Shown here: piece after piece, positions 1,647 through 11,374 of the stretch
Numbering within the stretch: position 1 is the stretch's first letter
Layout of the letters: the number at the start of each line of letters is the position of its first letter
DNA from: a virus
Lineage: Duplodnaviria > Heunggongvirae > Uroviricota > Caudoviricetes
DNA length: 11,760 bases
Strand: one strand, 5' to 3'
IMG/VR virus record: IMGVR_UViG_2534681774_000039
Notes under the pieces: generated by a model
Seen by the model: only the letters and a program-made list of their open reading frames with translations
The model's database searches: none
What the model was told of the DNA's origin: nothing
Position numbers and translations under genes: made by a program

Positions 1647-2081
1647 ATGCATCTAGAAGTCTCTATTAATCCAGAAACTAGAGCTGAATTTTTTGATGAA
1701 GTTTTTCTCAAATTCCCGGAGCTAGAGTCTTCTATCATTGATGATTTCAAGAGATACAAAGCAACCGGTGAGCTTCCGCATTATTTCGGTAGGGACGTTG
1801 CGTATACTCAGCCTTATGGTGCTTTTCGGGCTGGGTTGATGCATATCCATCTTTGTCTACCGCCAAACAAGTTTCCCGAGAAACTTCCACAACCGGATAG
1901 GGTCTGCAAGAAAGGTGATCCTGATAATGATGCTTGTCTTGTGTATGTCCAAGGTGAGCTTTATGAGAATAAATATTCACTCATTGCTATTATGTATCCC
2001 GATGCACATGAAAAAGCAAGAAAACATGATGTGATGAGCTATCTGGCGCGAATTGCCCAGAATTATAAAGATGAAAACTAA
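1647..2081 (+). CDS. YafO-family toxin-like protein (ribosome-dependent mRNA interferase family)
   Basis: Translation carries blocks I recall from E. coli YafO: ...YKATGELPHYFGRDVAY..., ...MHIHL..., ...ACLVYVQGE...SLIAIMYPDAHEKARKHD...; 144 aa; stop TAA 2079-2081 followed by a terminator. Confidence 0.7.
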   Translation: MHLEVSINPETRAEFFDEVFLKFPELESSIIDDFKRYKATGELPHYFGRDVAYTQPYGAFRAGLMHIHLCLPPNKFPEKLPQPDRVCKKGDPDNDACLVYVQGELYENKYSLIAIMYPDAHEKARKHDVMSYLARIAQNYKDEN

Positions 2082-2101
2082 CCCGCCGAAGCGGGTTTTT
2101 T
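2081..2101 (+). terminator. Rho-independent terminator (stem ACCCGC / GCGGGT, CGAA loop, T6 tract), shared by the convergent YafO-like and excisionase-like genes
   Basis: Perfect 6-bp GC-rich stem, tetraloop and T-run directly after the stop codon at 2079-2081; partly bidirectional (A-run on the other side). Confidence 0.75.
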
Positions 2102-2107
2102 GTGAGA

Positions 2108-2380
2108 TTAGTTATTTATTTTCCTATTTGTTCTTACCCTCTCCCATTCAATTCTGCCTTCTTCACGCCGTTTATCTATATATTCAGCAAGATCCTGAAT
2201 GTTGATGCAGCGCTTTGCTTTCTGTGATGTACCAACACGATAAGTCGGGATCGGCAACTGGCATGCATTTGCTTTCGCTTCTGCTGTGTTAGGGCTCATA
2301 CCGAAATACTTTTGGCATACAGCTGACAGCTCAATGTTTGGGGTATTGAATTCAGCCATCAGTAAAAACAAGGTGTTCAT
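2108..2380 (-). CDS. Excisionase-like / PrtN-family small DNA-binding protein; likely start at the internal ATG 2380 (MNTLFLLMAEF...) rather than GTG 2407
   Basis: MNTLFLLMAEF...SAVCQKYFGMSPNTAEAKANACQLPIPTYRVGTSQKAKRCINIQDLAEYIDKRREE resembles the PrtN/excisionase-like proteins of lambdoid prophages as I recall them; GGAG RBS 6 nt before ATG 2380; last gene of the minus-strand operon. Confidence 0.6.
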   Translation of the reverse strand: MNTLFLLMAEFNTPNIELSAVCQKYFGMSPNTAEAKANACQLPIPTYRVGTSQKAKRCINIQDLAEYIDKRREEGRIEWERVRTNRKINN

Positions 2381-2416
2381 AATTTTCTCCATCAAAACCG
2401 GCTGCACCCGGGAAAA

Positions 2417-2989
2417 TCATAATTCTGTGCTGGTAGCAGGAATTAATTTCTGCCAGATAGCGGAAACATATTTTGCCTGATGACGGGCATCAGCCAGGGC
2501 GTTGTGCCGGTCGCCATCGAAAGGCATGTCCATTTTGGGGTCGAATCCGATGGAACGCCCAAGCGTAACGATCGTGCGTACATCGTGGTCATTCCAGTAC
2601 GCCCACGGGCAGATTTGTCCTGCTCGCTCGTAAGCTCCACGTAAAATTACGTTGTCGAAGGTGGCCCCGTTACCCCAGACTTTTAAATATTTCGTATTGT
2701 CTGCGTGCCGGTTAATGAAATGGTTTAGTTCTGAGAGAGCATCGCTGATCGACAAAGTATCATCAATACAGATTGCAGCTCGTGCTTCAGGGCTTTGTTT
2801 CAACCACCACAGGATGGTATCGCCGTCAGGTGTAGCTCCTTGCTCCATAGCACTTTCCAGGCTAACAACCGTATAGAATTCTTGTCCGATGTCTCCGATT
2901 TCTGGAGTGAAGAACACCGCGCCAATGGAAACGATCGGTGCATCCTTATTTTTCCCCATCGTCTCAAGGTCGATCATTAAGTTGTTCAT
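2417..2989 (-). CDS. DnaQ-like DEDDh 3'-5' exonuclease (phage exonuclease)
   Basis: Exo motifs readable in the translation: IDLETMG (Exo I D-x-E), WGNGATFDNVIL (Exo II), HNALADARHQAKY (Exo III H-x4-D); GGAGG RBS; ATG overlaps the upstream stop (TGATG). Confidence 0.75.
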   Translation of the reverse strand: MNNLMIDLETMGKNKDAPIVSIGAVFFTPEIGDIGQEFYTVVSLESAMEQGATPDGDTILWWLKQSPEARAAICIDDTLSISDALSELNHFINRHADNTKYLKVWGNGATFDNVILRGAYERAGQICPWAYWNDHDVRTIVTLGRSIGFDPKMDMPFDGDRHNALADARHQAKYVSAIWQKLIPATSTEL

Positions 2990-3555
2990 CACTTCACCTC
3001 CAGCGGCGGTTCCGGTAGCGGCATCCAGTGAGTTGCTTGCTCAATACCATTACCCGGCTTAATCGTTGCATCTCCGCGCCGAAAGGTGCTTCCGGTATAG
3101 CGTGCGGAGCATATTAGCGGTTCAACCTGAGAGCTATCGAAATTCACCGAAATAAGCACGTTCTGGCCCTTTTCAGGCATTCGATCACTACAGCTTATCC
3201 AACTATCCGGAGTTCCCGGAGAGTTGCCATTTACATCGAAGTTTGGCTCTGCGTCCTGAACTAGGAGGATGTAACCATTTTTGGCTGTATCAAGTTCTAA
3301 CGCCTCGGTGACGGTACCGAAATAGCGATTACCTAAATCAACATCACAAGTGCTTACATCAATGGAAACTTCCATGCCTTCGATTAATTCTGGCAAGTTG
3401 TAAGTTTGGCTTACAGGCTCTGCTTCCAGCGATACCAGTGCAATTCGTGCCAGTTCTTCCGCTTCTTCTGCTGGCAGTACAACGTTGCTGCCAGGTCCGT
3501 ATGTTTCGCGCCACTGCTGGATTGTCAGCAGTCGCCCTTTGGTAATAGTGATCAT
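2989..3555 (-). CDS. Phage protein with DUF551-like C-terminal region
   Basis: 188-aa ORF translationally coupled on both sides (ATGA overlaps); C-terminal ...WISCSDRMPEKGQNVLISV... resembles the DUF551 signature of lambdoid early-region proteins (from memory). Confidence 0.55.
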   Translation of the reverse strand: MITITKGRLLTIQQWRETYGPGSNVVLPAEEAEELARIALVSLEAEPVSQTYNLPELIEGMEVSIDVSTCDVDLGNRYFGTVTEALELDTAKNGYILLVQDAEPNFDVNGNSPGTPDSWISCSDRMPEKGQNVLISVNFDSSQVEPLICSARYTGSTFRRGDATIKPGNGIEQATHWMPLPEPPLEVK

Positions 3556-4067
3556 GCCGCGTTTCCTTCTTTCTTATTAACAATCACACCGTCATATATT
3601 TCATTAAGGTGCCCTCTCAACTCCATGCGCCTTAATGCAGATAACATGTAATCGCATTCAACCTGCTTATTCCCAGTAAATGGCTTATCGTCAGGATTAC
3701 CCCAACAGCAATTACCCCTGGGCCATCCATGTACTTTCCGTACTCTTCCGTTAACAACGTGAAGTAATCCCCAGCCGGGAGGTAAATCCTCAACTGAAAT
3801 AATTTCCGGCTCACTAATAAAGAATCGCCAGTCGCCCATGCCAAGTGAGGGATTTTTACGGAAACGCTTTTTTCTATCTGCCAACAAGTCAGCACGAGAA
3901 CACTTCGCCTCTATCAGGCATGATGCTGAATTTCTGAATCCCATAGCATCTGGCTGTTCTCCGGTACTGGTTACAGCAACAAAGCGGTCATGAAAGCAAA
4001 CCTTGAACCCGTTGCGCTTAAGGAACTTGTACGCAATCTGACAGAGTTCGTGGTGTGTTAACGCCAT
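3552..4067 (-). CDS. PD-(D/E)XK nuclease-fold-like hypothetical protein (171 aa from the internal ATG with AAGGAG RBS)
   Basis: Motif arrangement E(LCQ)...GEQPD...(13 aa)...LIEAKCS fits E...PD...(D/E)xK; strong RBS AAAGGAGAG 6 nt before ATG 4067; the ORF-track start at 4100 is probably read-through into the upstream gene. Confidence 0.5.
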   Translation of the reverse strand: MALTHHELCQIAYKFLKRNGFKVCFHDRFVAVTSTGEQPDAMGFRNSASCLIEAKCSRADLLADRKKRFRKNPSLGMGDWRFFISEPEIISVEDLPPGWGLLHVVNGRVRKVHGWPRGNCCWGNPDDKPFTGNKQVECDYMLSALRRMELRGHLNEIYDGVIVNKKEGNAA

Positions 4068-7632: not shown

Positions 7633-8307
7633 TTAGGCCTTTATTTGGTATCTTCTTGGTTTTCCTGAGAAAATTACTGTACCAATTATAGAGCAATTAC
7701 CGTTAATCTTAATGTAAGGCTCAGGCCAGTTTGGGTTTAATGCTTTGAGATAACGCTGTGTTCCATCTTCTATCAATCGCTTGAAGGTGGTTTCGCCTGT
7801 ATCGTGCATCAATGCAATAACGTCGTCACCGTGGCAGGCAGGGACTTCGGGATCAACAAAAATCATGTCTCCCGGGCGGTACTCATCAATCATTGAATCA
7901 CCAATCACCCGCAAGATATAAGTCATTTCGCCACAGGGTACAGGGCAGGGATAAGTTTCTGCTGTGCTCAAATCAACCTCAGAATAGCCAACTTCTTTCC
8001 ATGCTCCGGCCTGTACCCATGATATGACAGGGACTAACGTTATTTGTTTGTTAGTAATTGAAACATCAGGTTTTTTTGTGATGTTTGTTGTCTGGTGTTC
8101 TTGATCAAGCCATCCGACAGGCAGGTCGAAACATTTTTCGATGTGCCGTGCCATGCTGTCACCGATATTTTTAGTAGCACCATCTCCCATAAACCTGCTG
8201 GTCTGGGTTGGCTCGCGATCAATCATGGTGGCAAAGGAAGAATTCCCGCCAACACCATCTCTCAGTTTTCTGGCGTTAGACCGCCGGATGTCATGGACTG
8301 TTTTCAT
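7633..8307 (-). CDS. cI: cI-like prophage repressor, N-terminal DNA-binding domain plus C-terminal LexA-like S24 autopeptidase domain
   Basis: C-terminal domain shows a candidate Ala-Gly cleavage site (WVQAGAWKE), catalytic Ser motif GDSM, and a Lys in ...TTFKRLIEDG... resembling the LexA ...FTVKRLKKQG... block; position and orientation (divergent from cro) fit an immunity repressor. Confidence 0.8.
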   Translation of the reverse strand: MKTVHDIRRSNARKLRDGVGGNSSFATMIDREPTQTSRFMGDGATKNIGDSMARHIEKCFDLPVGWLDQEHQTTNITKKPDVSITNKQITLVPVISWVQAGAWKEVGYSEVDLSTAETYPCPVPCGEMTYILRVIGDSMIDEYRPGDMIFVDPEVPACHGDDVIALMHDTGETTFKRLIEDGTQRYLKALNPNWPEPYIKINGNCSIIGTVIFSGKPRRYQIKA

Positions 8308-8397: not shown

Positions 8398-8598
8398 ATG
8401 AAAGCGTATTGGGACTCTTTAACCAAAGAACAGCAGGGCGAGTTGGCCGGAAAAGTTGGCTCAACACCAGGCTACTTACGGCTAGTTTTCAATGGTTATA
8501 AAAAAGCCAGTTTTGTGCTGGCTAAAAAACTTGAGCAATGCACGTCAGGTGCAATTACGAAATCTGACTTAAGACCGGATATCTATCCGAAAGATTAA
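8398..8598 (+). CDS. cro: Cro-like small HTH regulator (YdaS-like)
   Basis: 66-aa protein MKAYWDSLTKEQQGELAGKVGSTPGYLRLVFNGYKK...SDLRPDIYPKD; GGAGG RBS 8 nt before ATG 8398; the ...LRPDI... C-terminal block recalls Rac YdaS-type Cro proteins; first gene of the rightward operon. The 167-aa ORF-track version (8095..) is an upstream read-through that overlaps cI. Confidence 0.65.
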   Translation: MKAYWDSLTKEQQGELAGKVGSTPGYLRLVFNGYKKASFVLAKKLEQCTSGAITKSDLRPDIYPKD

Positions 8599-8629
8599 CA
8601 GAACACCTTCAATTTTTAACCACAGAACG

Positions 8630-9193
8630 ATGAGGCTAACCGTGGGTAAGCATCACTGGAAAGTAGAAAAACAGCCTGAGTGGTACGTGAAAGCTGTCAG
8701 AAAAACTATCGCGGCGTTGCCGGGGGGTTACGCTGAAGCTGCTGAGTGGCTGGATGTAACAGAGAACGCTTTATTCAACCGCCTTCGTGCAGATGGCGAT
8801 CAGATTTTCCCGCTGGGATGGGCAATGATTTTACAGCGCGCGGCTGGCACTCACTACATTGCGGATGCTGTCGCACAGTCTGCTGGTGGGGTGTTTGTAT
8901 CGCTTCCTGAAATTGAGGAAGTAGAGAACGCCGATATAAACCAGCGCCTGCTGGAAGTCATCGAACAGATCGGGAGTTACTCAAAGCAGATTCGTTCGGC
9001 AATCGAAGATGGGGTCGTGGAGCCACACGAGCAGACAGCAATTAATGATGAGTTGTATCTGTCAATTTCGAAGCTCCAGGAACATGCAGCACTGGTCTAC
9101 GAAATCTTCTGCGCTCCAGAAAAGAGTGACGCCCGCGAGTGTGCAGCTCCGGGCGTCGTGGCGTTTTGTGTCTGTGGAGAAACTAACGCATGA
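8630..9193 (+). CDS. CII-like / YdaT-like phage regulatory protein (start may be GTG 8642, which has a better RBS)
   Basis: Block ...AEWLDVTENALFNRLRADGDQIFPLGWAMIL... parallels the ...TLRNKLNPEQPHQFTPPELWLL... block of the Phage_CP76 CII family as I recall it; sits in the cII position after cro. Confidence 0.55.
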   Translation: MRLTVGKHHWKVEKQPEWYVKAVRKTIAALPGGYAEAAEWLDVTENALFNRLRADGDQIFPLGWAMILQRAAGTHYIADAVAQSAGGVFVSLPEIEEVENADINQRLLEVIEQIGSYSKQIRSAIEDGVVEPHEQTAINDELYLSISKLQEHAALVYEIFCAPEKSDARECAAPGVVAFCVCGETNA

Positions 9194-9792
9194 ACAGTTT
9201 AACGGCAAATAACCGTTTGTCGCAACAGCTGGTGGTCAGTGTCGCTGAACACCTGTTGTTACGGCATGAATGCAGATTACCAAATCACCTGGCTGTAAGT
9301 AACCACAGAGAACTTTACCTGACTGTGGGGGGCGAGTTGTGCAGGAACTTAACCGCTGGTTTCGTGACGGAAGAGGGCTTTATGTCCATGTTATTCGTTG
9401 GGAGCCAGAAACACAGCGCGTTATCTATCTTCGCAAAGACTACCCGCATGAGTGCTTTAGTCCTTTGTGGAAATTCAGGCGTGATTTTGTTGAGTGTGAA
9501 GGACCACCAGCACATTGATTCTGCCATTCCGGGACGTTACACTGTTCAGGCACCTTATAAAGCGGGTGCCGGGATTGGCGTCCTGGAGAAGGCTACCGCG
9601 TACAACCGCGTAGATGCGGTTTTTTTGTACGCATTATTTTGTCACGCCCAAATTATGGTGGGGCGTACAGGGGCATCGCAAGATGCGCCGGTAAGGGTAG
9701 CCGCCGGTAACGCCAACTCTGTACGTCTCACCACCTCTATGATTGGCGTCTTATGTGGTGAGTTTTTTAAGCTTGCTACCGAGGCTGCCATT

Positions 9793-10338
9793 ATGGCTAC
9801 GATCCCAACCTTTGTTCACCCTGAAATCACGATCATCAATGGTCGTGCTGTCACTACATCTCTTGCAGTTGCTAACTACTTTACTAAACGGCATGAGCGG
9901 GTTTTAGATAGAATTCGAAACCTTGAATGCTCCGCTGAATTTGCTGAACACAATTTTGTGTTAAGTGGTTATATCGACGCTTCAGGCCGCAAACTACCTT
10001 GCTATCAAATAACCCGCGATGGCTTTGCGTTTCTTGCTATGGGTTTCACGGGTAAACGTGCTGCCCAGTTCAAAGAGGCATACATCAATGCCTTTAACCA
10101 GATGGAGAAACAGCTTTCAAAGCCCTCTGTACCGAGCGACGTTACACATAACGCCAGCGTTCTCTATTCCTACATTTCATCAATTCATCAGGTCTGGTTG
10201 CAGCAGCTTTATCCCATGCTGGAAAAAGCTGAATCACCGCTGGCTGTAAGTCTGTATGACCGAATTAACGATGCGGCATTTCTTGCCCGTCTTATTCATT
10301 CGTCGCTGAACTCTTCAGAGGTAAGGGGGCGCAAATGA
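9793..10338 (+). CDS. rha: Phage regulatory protein Rha family (Rha domain at N-terminus when started at ATG 9793); the same frame is stop-free back to ATG 9190, so a longer 382-aa product cannot be excluded
   Basis: ...ITIINGRAVTTSLAVANYFTKRHERVLDRIRNL...ITRDGFAFLAMGFTGKRAAQFKEAYINAFNQMEKQL matches the Rha-domain signature as recalled; GAGG RBS 9 nt before ATG 9793; stop overlaps the next start (ATGA). Confidence 0.7.
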   Translation: MATIPTFVHPEITIINGRAVTTSLAVANYFTKRHERVLDRIRNLECSAEFAEHNFVLSGYIDASGRKLPCYQITRDGFAFLAMGFTGKRAAQFKEAYINAFNQMEKQLSKPSVPSDVTHNASVLYSYISSIHQVWLQQLYPMLEKAESPLAVSLYDRINDAAFLARLIHSSLNSSEVRGRK

Positions 10339-10559
10339 TCCGGAATATTTTCAAACGTTTTACCAATCAGACTTTCCGTTGTCCTCGTCCGGGTCAGTGG
10401 TACACCACGCCTGCAGGGCATGTTCTACGTGTTAGCCTGGTTGACCGTGAATGTCAGAAGGTGGTTTGTGAACCGCTGGGCCGTAATTACCGCGTCAGTA
10501 TGCCGCTTATAGCCTTTCGCTCCGGAAAAAACATGAAGCATCTCGGAGGTGCTGCATGA
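10335..10559 (+). CDS. Small hypothetical protein (74 aa), translationally coupled between rha and the replication gene
   Basis: ATGA overlaps at both ends (10335-10338 and 10556-10559); no family recognised; basic, Arg-rich. Confidence 0.4.
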   Translation: MIRNIFKRFTNQTFRCPRPGQWYTTPAGHVLRVSLVDRECQKVVCEPLGRNYRVSMPLIAFRSGKNMKHLGGAA

Positions 10560-11374
10560 GTATGGAGCTGATGGTTAAAGCGATGAAAATTCGAGTGGGA
10601 AATCCATTGCGAAAACTGGTTCTGATCAAGCTGGCTGATAATGCCAGCGATCAGGGGGAGTGCTGGCCCAGCTACCAGCATATTGCTGATCAGTGCGAGA
10701 TTAGCAAACGTTCTGTGATGAATCATATTGCGGCCCTTTGTGAGTCCGGGCTGGTAAAAAAAGTCACCCGGAAAGGTGAAAAAGGTAACTCAAGTAATAT
10801 CTATCTCCTTCATCTGGATGGTGCAGGAGATTCACTAGGGGGTAGTGCAAATAATTCACTATCTGGTGCAGCAAATTCACCAGGTAGTGCAGGAGTTGCA
10901 CCAGGGGGTAGTGCAGGAGATTCACCCAGAACCAGTCACTCTTTTGAACCAGTCAAAGAACCAGTCAATGAACCAATAGCTGTTGGTGCATCTGCTGATG
11001 AGTCTGTGCGAGTTCGTTCAAACCGACCGGAATACTCTCCGGAGTTTGAGCAGGCATGGCTGGTATATCCCAAACGTGCTGGTGGCAATTCAAAATCTGC
11101 AGCCTTCAAAGCCTGGAAAGCCCGTTTGAATGAGGGGGTAAACCCCGAAACCATGCTGGAAGGTGTGAAACGCTACGCGGGCTGGGTATCTGCGATGGGT
11201 AACAGCGGCACACAATTTGTGAAACAGGCTGTCACGTTCTTTGGTCCGGATCGTCATTTCGAAGAATCCTGGGAAGTTCCTGCGGTATCTGCAGCCAGAC
11301 GCGAGGACCCGTACTTCAAAGCCAGTTACGACAATGTGGACTACAGCCAGATCCCGGTAGGATTCAGGGGGTGA
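10556..11374 (+). CDS. Phage replication initiation / replisome-organiser protein: N-terminal winged-HTH region, Gly/Ser-rich linker, conserved phage C-terminal domain (Phg_2220_C-like)
   Basis: N-terminus ...LRKLVLIKLADNASDQGECWPSYQHIADQCEISKRSVMNHIAALCESGLVKK... is typical of phage replication HTH proteins; C-terminus ...FEQAWLVYPKRAGGNSKSAAFKAWKARL...VKRYAGWVSAMG... matches the conserved phage C-terminus pattern as I recall it. Confidence 0.7.
   Translation: MSMELMVKAMKIRVGNPLRKLVLIKLADNASDQGECWPSYQHIADQCEISKRSVMNHIAALCESGLVKKVTRKGEKGNSSNIYLLHLDGAGDSLGGSANNSLSGAANSPGSAGVAPGGSAGDSPRTSHSFEPVKEPVNEPIAVGASADESVRVRSNRPEYSPEFEQAWLVYPKRAGGNSKSAAFKAWKARLNEGVNPETMLEGVKRYAGWVSAMGNSGTQFVKQAVTFFGPDRHFEESWEVPAVSAARREDPYFKASYDNVDYSQIPVGFRG
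10821..10977 (+). repeat. Cluster of direct repeats inside the replication gene linker (candidate iterons / origin)
   Basis: GTGCAGGAGATTCAC at 10821-10835 and 10911-10925; GGGGGTAGTGCA at 10838-10849 and 10904-10915; ATTCAC recurring at about 22-bp spacing; GAACCAGTCA three times (10929-10938, 10946-10955, 10958-10967) plus a partial fourth. Confidence 0.5.

Follow-up and report, generated by a model that had tools for sequence, protein, structure and literature searches.

The immunity region of the satellite phage P4 was reportedly described by Ghisotti (1992) and by Sabbattini (1995). Here we analyse a locus that resembles it, nucleotides (nt) 9190-9792 of IMG/VR virus record IMGVR_UViG_2534681774_000039, in which a stop-free reading frame leads into the gene for a Rha-domain regulator; the whole 11,760-nt stretch of this virus (Caudoviricetes) is called the window. 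A constitutive promoter lies inside the P4 gene eta; its transcripts soon terminate, through interactions of CI and seqA, and are the source of the CI RNA, whereas translation of Kil requires read-through (PMC10111431, citing Forti et al. 1999 J Bacteriol 181:5225). The same source states that ribosomes make full-length Eta only on transcripts from an upstream promoter, by coupling to the upstream gene, and that this translation prevents termination. RNA immunity genes inside an eta-like open reading frame (ORF) are described there for P4 and noted for phage-inducible chromosomal islands (PICIs). The immI operon of P1 and P7 comprises the c4 antisense RNA, icd and ant (Citron and Schuster 1990, as cited in PMC2864571 and PMC3632133); the corresponding Rfam families are RF01695 and RF03163. 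In the isrK-orf45-anrP locus of Gifsy-1, read-through of the IsrK terminator, translation of orf45 and orf45-anrP coupling have been shown (Hershko-Shalev et al. 2016, PMC4825925). That paper also demonstrates the isrK promoter by fusions and notes a leader-to-downstream-gene fusion for S. dysenteriae. Earlier work treats IsrK as the equivalent of seqA and C4 as that of the CI RNA (PMC3632133; PMC4825925).

In our view, 9190-9792 is probably a module for secondary immunity based on RNA, of the type seen in P4 (seqA-CI-seqC), P1 (immI) and Gifsy-1 (isrK-orf45-anrP), and lies under an eta-like carrier ORF. The anatomy of the module, its pairing with covariation and its selected frames are read from comparisons of related sequences. 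The elements on which the argument depends are the following, with lengths of proteins in amino acids (aa) and SD denoting a Shine-Dalgarno sequence.

9190-10338, plus strand: long eta-like carrier ORF of 382 codons, ATG start, in frame with the Rha gene
9339-9518, plus strand: DUF4222 gene, 59 aa, in frame +2 relative to 9190, with a GTG start and a G-rich SD at 9327-9332
9515-9543, plus strand: putative internal promoter, at the position of PisrK and of P4 PLE (TTGATT 9515-9520, 17-nt spacer, TACACT 9538-9543)
9550-9626, plus strand: IsrK or P4 seqA-like RNA (Rfam RF01394, 60.0 bits, gathering score 50)
9575-9581 and 9591-9597, plus strand: a1 (TTGGCGT) and b1 (GGCTACC), target copies inside IsrK, a1 being the IsrK hairpin-2 loop
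9651-9738, plus strand: C4 or P4 CI-type antisense RNA (Rfam RF01695, 68.4 bits, gathering score 45)
9655-9657, plus strand: conserved AUG at the C4 5' end, in the frame of the long ORF and the counterpart of the Gifsy-1 orf45 start
9696-9702 and 9710-9716, plus strand: b' (GGTAGCC), the C4 hairpin-2 loop, and a' (ACGCCAA), in the C4 3' single strand
9743-9749 and 9775-9780, plus strand: a2 (TTGGCGT) and b2 (GCTACC), in the downstream operator region 9743-9792
9783-9789, plus strand: second b' match (GGCTGCC), in the start region of ATG 9793, whose SD (GAGG) is at 9781-9784
9793-10338, plus strand: Rha-domain regulator of 182 aa, a nested short gene at the position of P4 kil and P1 icd

Two RNAs inside the long frame

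The IsrK-like RNA ends in an intrinsic terminator, identified by a terminator scan, with its stem at 9604-9621 and a run of seven T at 9620-9626. The promoter-like site precedes the first position of the isrK model by 7 nt, with a predicted transcription start at about 9550, and it stands at the same place as the TTGACA-17-CTATAT read upstream of Gifsy-1 isrK. Only one of its positions varies among the 13 intact module alleles (16 aligned clusters) that we use in all comparisons of alleles below.

The C4 match spans the full length of the family model (1-87). Its minimum free energy (MFE) is -46.5 kcal/mol (z -6.2), and the MFE structure, a long closing stem around two hairpins, is identical to that of the family model. 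Across the alleles the C4 helices are 100% paired, with seven covarying pairs.

By Rfam, the same pair of isrK and C4 is found in mEp460, ST64B, SfV, Ayreon, Gifsy-1, P4, a Stx1a phage, a P22-like phage and a Klebsiella phage, and ZX5 carries the pair as well. Two relatives (L077, an IMG/VR sequence, at 2001-3797, and L148) hold two tandem isrK-C4-Rha modules of different specificities in one 598-codon open frame, and the second of these modules also matches Rfam c4-a1b1. A study of enterohaemorrhagic E. coli (EHEC) by RNA-seq and Ribo-seq left out C4 and isrK because both lie inside annotated genes. The RNA STnc1310 of ST64B has been mentioned once, without coordinates.

Antisense pairing and covariation

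The C4 sequences a' and b' are complementary to a1 and b1 in IsrK and to a2 and b2 downstream, where b2 abuts the SD of ATG 9793. Divergence is concentrated in the RNA part of the module, whose identity to mEp460 is about 71% as compared with about 90% for the 2-kb stretch that contains it, and we attribute the variation within 9550-9792 to RNA pairing. In every one of the 13 alleles, the b' loop and both of its targets change together. For example, mEp460 has CTTTGGTGA with TCACCAAAG twice.

Pairing is conserved in 97.4% of cases between b1 and b' and in 95.7% between b' and b2, and in either helix 7 of the 9 pairs have changed on both sides. Over all helices counted, 93.7% of cells are paired, versus about 40% when the partners are slid against each other (23-49% in individual slid controls). 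The a' sequence matches a1 and a2 in two allele types, the second of which, TTTCCAC with GTGGAAA, occurs in mEp460 and ST64B. Altogether the alleles form eight specificity groups. The terminator hairpin occurs in two registers among the alleles, which MAFFT fails to align with each other, and its helix therefore scores only 59% paired; it was left out of this covariation evidence.

The computed duplex energies at the downstream sites are -14.3 kcal/mol for b' and -10.5 kcal/mol for a'. When cognate and non-cognate duplex energies are arranged in a matrix, the upstream targets are clearly allele-specific; the downstream targets are blurred by shared CCGG stem bases, and we therefore rely on the column-wise pair counts given above.

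Comparison with P4, P1 and Gifsy-1

The likeness to P4 extends to the arrangement of reading frames. The P4 frame that contains the C4 AUG has 217 codons without a stop, from upstream of the isrK/seqA hit to the start of epsilon, and it holds Eta (199 codons from MMM) together with a nested 65-aa Kil that starts at 'EAAIMATT'. The window ORF aligns to this frame across 'QIMVG...EAAIMAT..HPE'. As in P4, the long ORF begins upstream of the internal promoter-like site, is coupled to the upstream gene, as judged at the sequence level, and spans both isrK/seqA and C4/CI. As in P4, a short gene is nested in frame with the same stop and starts at the 'EAAIMAT' junction, and the Pfam profile Phage_ASH, discussed below, matches both long ORFs. 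Unlike P4, whose module lies in the left operon of the satellite and whose nested gene is the 65-aa Kil, the module here lies in a lambdoid early operon, driven by the promoter PR, and its nested gene is the 182-aa Rha. Moreover, the long ORF here also overprints a complete DUF4222 gene and has an intrinsic terminator predicted inside it; the function proposed here is drawn from comparison.

As in P1 and P7, the C4 sequences a' and b' match a1 and b1 upstream as well as a2 and b2 at the ribosome binding site of the first downstream gene, and the pairing is allele-specific, which in P1 and P7 corresponds to heteroimmunity. In a P1-like phage (L088) C4 lies at 2605-2692, and the frame of the C4 AUG runs into icd, whose product begins MATIPT..HPE as does the window Rha ORF. 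The cargo here is Rha rather than Icd and Ant, and unlike the P1 and P7 modules the one in the window follows cro and ymfL and has the long ORF running through it.

Gifsy-1 has the same isrK and C4 pair, its orf45 starts at the conserved C4 AUG in the same frame, and its downstream gene encodes an antirepressor-type protein (AnrP), as is presumed for Rha. There, however, orf45 has its own stop overlapping the anrP AUG, whereas the leader here is stop-free and fused to Rha. The Gifsy-1 frame closes 1 codon upstream of the C4 AUG, as it does 6 codons upstream in ZX5 and 4 in a Klebsiella phage, all stand-alone modules; in the window it is open for 156 codons upstream. AnrP is an ORF6N protein and not Rha, and the Gifsy-1 locus follows antQ instead of standing in an early operon.

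The gene that follows C4 starts with nearly the same peptide in three of these systems: MATIPTPTHPEF in P1-like Icd, MATTLTPSHPEF in P4 Kil and MATIPTFVHPEI in the window Rha ORF (L088 2747-2790; P4 L210 about 8365-8320, minus strand; window 9793-9840). The start region of the regulated gene thus appears to be part of the conserved module.

A DUF4222 gene hidden in the long frame

Upstream of the RNAs, the long ORF wholly contains the DUF4222 gene (Pfam PF13973, E 9.5e-14), in another frame. We compare 9339-9518 with its counterpart in ST64B by means of omega, the ratio of non-synonymous to synonymous substitution rates. Read in the DUF4222 frame, the differences amount to 14 synonymous and 6 non-synonymous changes, with an omega of 0.08; read in the long frame, omega is 3.6. 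By this measure, the frame under selection in 9339-9518 is that of DUF4222 and not the long frame. A homologous DUF4222 ORF is hidden in the same way in e14 and in the Stx1a phage, and in other E. coli genomes the gene carries the PGAP annotation WP_001341559.1. A protein homology search with aa 1-117 of the long ORF returned close relatives, fragments and variants only, and exposed the DUF4222 frame.

In the e14 element of K-12 (L004, 6823-7181), the gene ymfM, annotated as 'cell division inhibitor', overlaps an unannotated 59-aa DUF4222 ORF (L004:7002-7181, TTG start) that is in a different frame from ymfM and is conserved with 9339-9518 of the window. Over-expression of ymfM leads to filamentation (bioRxiv 10.1101/2020.11.19.390815). 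The text of that preprint makes no mention of frameshift or stop-codon controls, so that either frame may be the cause of the filamentation.

Several variants of the region join its parts differently. In variant P0042, found on 44 contigs, a 48-aa leader beginning MNSLT is joined directly to DUF4222 in a product of 109 aa. This fits a one-base change in the length of the G run, which is G6 in the window (9327-9332) and G5 in ST64B, where the frames are separate. Two deletion variants, P0098 and P0093 (78 and 93 aa), have the MNSLT leader joined in frame to the C-terminal 28 or so residues of the Rha ORF. Neither retains DUF4222, the Rha domain or the RNA module, but both keep the frame into the start of the next gene. 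We also considered a programmed -1 frameshift at G GGG GGC (9326-9332), by which the leader would continue into DUF4222. We reject this candidate for lack of conservation of the slippery site: ST64B has GGGGGAT at that position, and a TGA stands two codons before its DUF4222 GTG.

Selection in the Rha and 'Ash' parts

The Rha domain, which is of the winged-helix type, is matched by Pfam PF09669 at aa 222-307 (E 6.4e-30) and by TIGR02681 (100.8 bits), and the Rha part of the ORF has an omega of 0.1-0.3 and a third-position bias. An antirepressor role for Rha is suggested by its context; other modules have P1 Ant, AnrP (ORF6N) and Bro-N antirepressors as their cargo.

Immediately upstream, Pfam PF10554 (Phage_ASH) matches aa 117-211 of the ORF, or nt 9538-9822, with 54.1 bits against a cut-off of 26. 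We looked for purifying selection on these 'Ash' amino acids by omega and by codon position, and found none: over 9550-9792 omega is about 0.6-1.8, and substitutions are spread evenly over codon positions. The conserved islands in the 'Ash' part are RNA stems, the terminator and the SD. To judge from this pattern of substitution, the Phage_ASH match is a translation of the isrK-C4 RNA module, and not a protein domain under purifying selection.

The profile also matches the corresponding ORF of the Stx1a phage. In P4 it matches the old 'cI 137 aa' ORF, which shares DNA with the C4 hit, the gene for the CI RNA. It does not match P4 epsilon, which belongs to a different family, PF25738 (P4 L210, 8168-8584 and 7888-8175, minus strand, were examined). 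A survey of P4 satellites takes PF10554 as the epsilon profile (PMC8628076), which looks like a mis-assignment. 'Rha/Ash' proteins are known from the 'Eru' phages that encode Shiga toxin (Stx; PMC8951638), and the function of the Ash domain is listed in the literature as unknown.

The long frame is kept open

We refer to the frame of ATG 9190 as frame 0, and to the 201 codons of 9190-9792 as the extension. ATG 9190 overlaps the TGA of ymfL (ATGA), with a GGAG upstream at 9177-9180; in the Stx1a phage the ATG of the long ORF lies 3 nt after the stop of the upstream gene. Over the extension frame 0 contains no stops, the other two plus-strand frames contain 15 and 9, and the three minus-strand frames 10, 6 and 10. 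In 20,000 dinucleotide-preserving shuffles of 9190-9792, frame 0 is open by chance in 0.015% (about 1.5e-4).

A reading of the window made from its sequence only had drawn attention to this open 200-codon frame, its ATGA coupling and the stop-rich frames beside it, and had put its chance occurrence at roughly 1e-4. The stop counts agree with the former, and the shuffles give a value close to the latter. The same reading had noted a good ATG and ribosome binding site at 9793, which corresponds to the GAGG 8 nt upstream; a hairpin with a run of seven T, which is the terminator described above; and a composition poor in Lys, Glu and Asp and free of Trp, which the translation bears out (no Trp, Lys+Glu+Asp about 9-10%). 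The hydrophobic stretches that it pointed to are indeed present in the translation, but they are mere by-products of other elements: SALVLCGNSGVILLSV is the DUF4222 gene read in the +1 frame, and AVFLYALFCHAQIMVG is the terminator T-run and the 5' end of C4 RNA read as codons.

Full-length homologues are conserved at 381-387 aa. Our first sample of relatives was biased towards open frames because it had been picked by frame-0 translation, and we replaced it with a sample picked by a 24-nt DNA pattern. Of the 66 distinct loci in this second sample, 63 have frame 0 open all the way from the MNSLT ATG through the module.

Among the 13 alleles, the stops in frames 0, 1 and 2 number 0, 10 and 27 from the IsrK 5' end to AUG 9655, and 0, 16 and 25 from AUG 9655 to ATG 9793, or none, 26 and 52 in sum. 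All length differences among the alleles are multiples of 3. When the variable letters of an allele are shuffled and its conserved columns held fixed, frame 0 is open in 9-16% of trials.

The DUF4222 gene can be treated in a similar way. Under synonymous resampling of this gene, frame 0 is open with a probability of 0.04-0.07 in each of three lineages, namely window/ST64B, e14 and the Stx1a phage. Safe codons are used at all the risk dicodons of DUF4222 (Leu/Val-Asn and Val-Ile), and they differ between the lineages. These comparisons of sequence lead us to conclude that the long frame is kept open, though its amino acids upstream of 9793 are unconstrained.

Genomic setting

The window corresponds to the immunity and early region of an E. 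coli phage of lambdoid type that resembles e14, SfV and cdtI, and the long ORF lies within its early right operon. Over 8600-10600 identity is 99.2% with phage cdtI; mEp460 and several Stx phages follow at about 90%, and Salmonella phage ST64B at about 78%. The genes stand in the order S24-type cI, cro, YmfL/CII-like gene, ORF 9190-10338, 74-aa ORF and replication gene.

7633-8307, minus strand: S24-type cI
8398-8598: cro
8630-9193, plus strand: regulator of the YmfL family, CII-like (NCBIfam NF041471, E 4.7e-50; Pfam Phage_CP76)
from 10335, plus strand: 74-aa ORF, whose start overlaps the stop at 10336-10338, in the same operon
10556-11374, plus strand: replication protein, beginning 4 nt before the end of the 74-aa ORF, in the same operon

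Elsewhere in the window, an IS1 transposase ORF (PF03400) occupies 195-698 at the left end. A YafO-toxin-like ORF (1647-2081) is preceded by a 179-aa ORF without a family match (together 1091-2081); these two could be a toxin-antitoxin pair carried by the prophage.

Proposed mechanism

The steps that we propose for the lysogen and for induction are modelled on P1, P4 and Gifsy-1. In the lysogen, PR would be off, and the internal promoter would make an untranslated RNA that mostly stops at the IsrK terminator. RNA that reads through would yield C4 by processing, which in this class of module is associated with RNase P and PNPase, and C4, acting in trans, would pair with a2 and b2, block ribosome entry at the Rha start and so keep the Rha regulator, presumably an antirepressor, off. 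C4 might also cause Rho termination ahead of the replication genes, and IsrK would carry decoy copies of the C4 targets.

Once PR fires, ribosomes leaving ymfL would restart at ATG 9190 through the ATGA coupling and translate through DUF4222, the promoter, the terminator, C4 and a2/b2 into Rha. Translation of the carrier would prevent the terminator and C4 from folding and would bypass the blocked SD, and transcription would reach the replication genes, in parallel with the translation of eta on P4 late-promoter transcripts. After derepression of PR, the outcome would be a Rha-containing protein together with the downstream replication functions.

More tentatively, and at somewhat less than even chances in our estimate, the carrier ORF may be a 'ribosome relay', unconstrained in its own sequence and kept by selection, that overprints DUF4222, a promoter and two RNAs, one with its terminator, within 600 nt. 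The codon choice of DUF4222 and the evolution of the RNA alleles would then be constrained to remain stop-free, and PR-driven translation would override immunity and termination.

Weighing the readings

We regard it as very improbable that the 382-aa product is a genuine protein whose residues 1-200 are a novel 'Ash' domain, perhaps associated with the membrane, fused to Rha. The conservation of full length at 381-387 aa, the annotation of a single protein in cdtI, mEp460, ST64B and others, the Phage_ASH score above cut-off, and PHROG 821, which covers aa 61-382, would all agree with such a protein. However, the omega of 3.6 in frame 0 over 9339-9518, as opposed to 0.08 in the other frame, speaks against it, as does an 'Ash' part that has an omega of about 1 with no codon-position bias and is hypervariable between phages otherwise about 90% identical, the variation tracking RNA complementarity. 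In P4, moreover, the match of the same profile sits on the experimentally defined CI RNA region. A novel, possibly membrane-associated N-terminal domain was one of two possibilities raised by the sequence-only reading; these omega values, including those of about 0.6-1.8 over the RNA part, contradict it. The observation was real, but the extension is not a new protein domain. The check by homologues that was proposed with it does find full-length ones (381-387 aa), but it does not separate the readings, because full length is conserved although the amino acids are not under protein-level selection. Equally improbable is a YmfM-like cell-division inhibitor, as in the e14 annotation, in the first 100 or so codons, fused to the sequence downstream. 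By BLASTP, aa 1-89 are 33% identical to e14 YmfM (E 4e-8), which occupies the same genomic position after ymfL and whose over-expression causes the filamentation cited above. The similarity is confined to MNSLT and the stretch overlapping DUF4222, however, and e14 also encodes that stretch in the other frame; the DNA match to e14 covers only 9390-9463, the frame-0 omega over the stretch that overlaps DUF4222 is 3.6, and no Pfam family covers YmfM.

The second possibility of the sequence-only reading was a structured untranslated leader, and its structured part stands, since the IsrK RNA, its terminator and C4 are all present. 'Untranslated' is probably wrong, given a frame that is kept open. 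In its strict form, this explanation holds that the leader is purely non-coding, that the frame is untranslated upstream of 9655 or 9793 and open only incidentally, and that the 382-aa ORF is an artefact of annotation; we judge this unlikely, though not to the degree of the two protein readings above. All recognisable content of the extension is RNA, promoter or a gene in another frame, stand-alone modules close the frame just upstream of the C4 AUG, and in many genomes PGAP now places the start of the coding sequence (CDS) at window 9448, an internal ATG, as one would expect of a non-coding leader. Against such a leader speak the stop counts of the 13 alleles (none in frame 0, 26 and 52 in the others), indels only in threes, the mere 9-16% of shuffles per allele that leave the frame open, and stop-avoiding synonymous codons at every DUF4222 risk dicodon in three lineages. 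So do the SD and ATGA coupling at 9190 and the Stx1a-phage ORF that starts 3 nt past the upstream stop, and P4 eta provides a precedent for translation.

Several points also weigh against the reading that we prefer, an RNA immunity module under a carrier ORF. The b2 of the window allele forms just 6 Watson-Crick pairs, and a second site of 7 pairs (one of them G-U) lies between the SD and the AUG; the exact b' target in this allele is ambiguous for these two reasons. The promoter-like site has 8 of 12 consensus matches, and for that reason our promoter scan did not list 9515-9543. IsrK alone folds no better than shuffled sequences (z -0.6), the antirepressor role of Rha is taken from context only, and the translational override of termination and immunity would hold here by analogy with P4. 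Three of the 66 loci lack the full frame: it is closed upstream in L131 and L135 and ends early inside Rha in L105. The G-run variant P0042, furthermore, fuses the leader to DUF4222 instead. Finally, the alleles share ancestry, and products of the per-allele probabilities therefore overstate significance and are to be read as upper bounds on it.

Implications for annotation and phage biology

DNA like 9190-9800 is present in 1207 of 5426 complete E. coli genomes. RefSeq treats it inconsistently, either as one long 'Rha family' CDS or as DUF4222 plus an 'ash family protein' or Rha CDS from the internal ATG 9448. On the reading preferred here, the proteins of about 380 aa named 'Rha/Ash', 'antirepressor', 'peptidase' or 'transcriptional regulator' in cdtI, mEp460, SfV, ST64B and many Stx and E. 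coli prophages would be composites, and their 'Ash domain' would be a translated antisense-RNA module. The value of the result lies mainly in correcting the annotation of the 'Rha/Ash' ORF and of the Pfam Ash family. If the carrier ORF is a relay, the e14 'ymfM' would be a remnant of it, and the cell-division phenotype might belong to the hidden DUF4222 frame.

The principle is already known from P4, and what we describe is an extension and a clarification of it, with no new mechanism; the unusual addition is a DUF4222 gene overprinted by the same carrier ORF. The lambdoid and Stx-related phages concerned would carry an RNA immunity layer in the style of P1 and P4, with many specificity alleles. 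This layer would control the Rha regulator and possibly the replication genes, and it would bear on prophage induction and cross-immunity.

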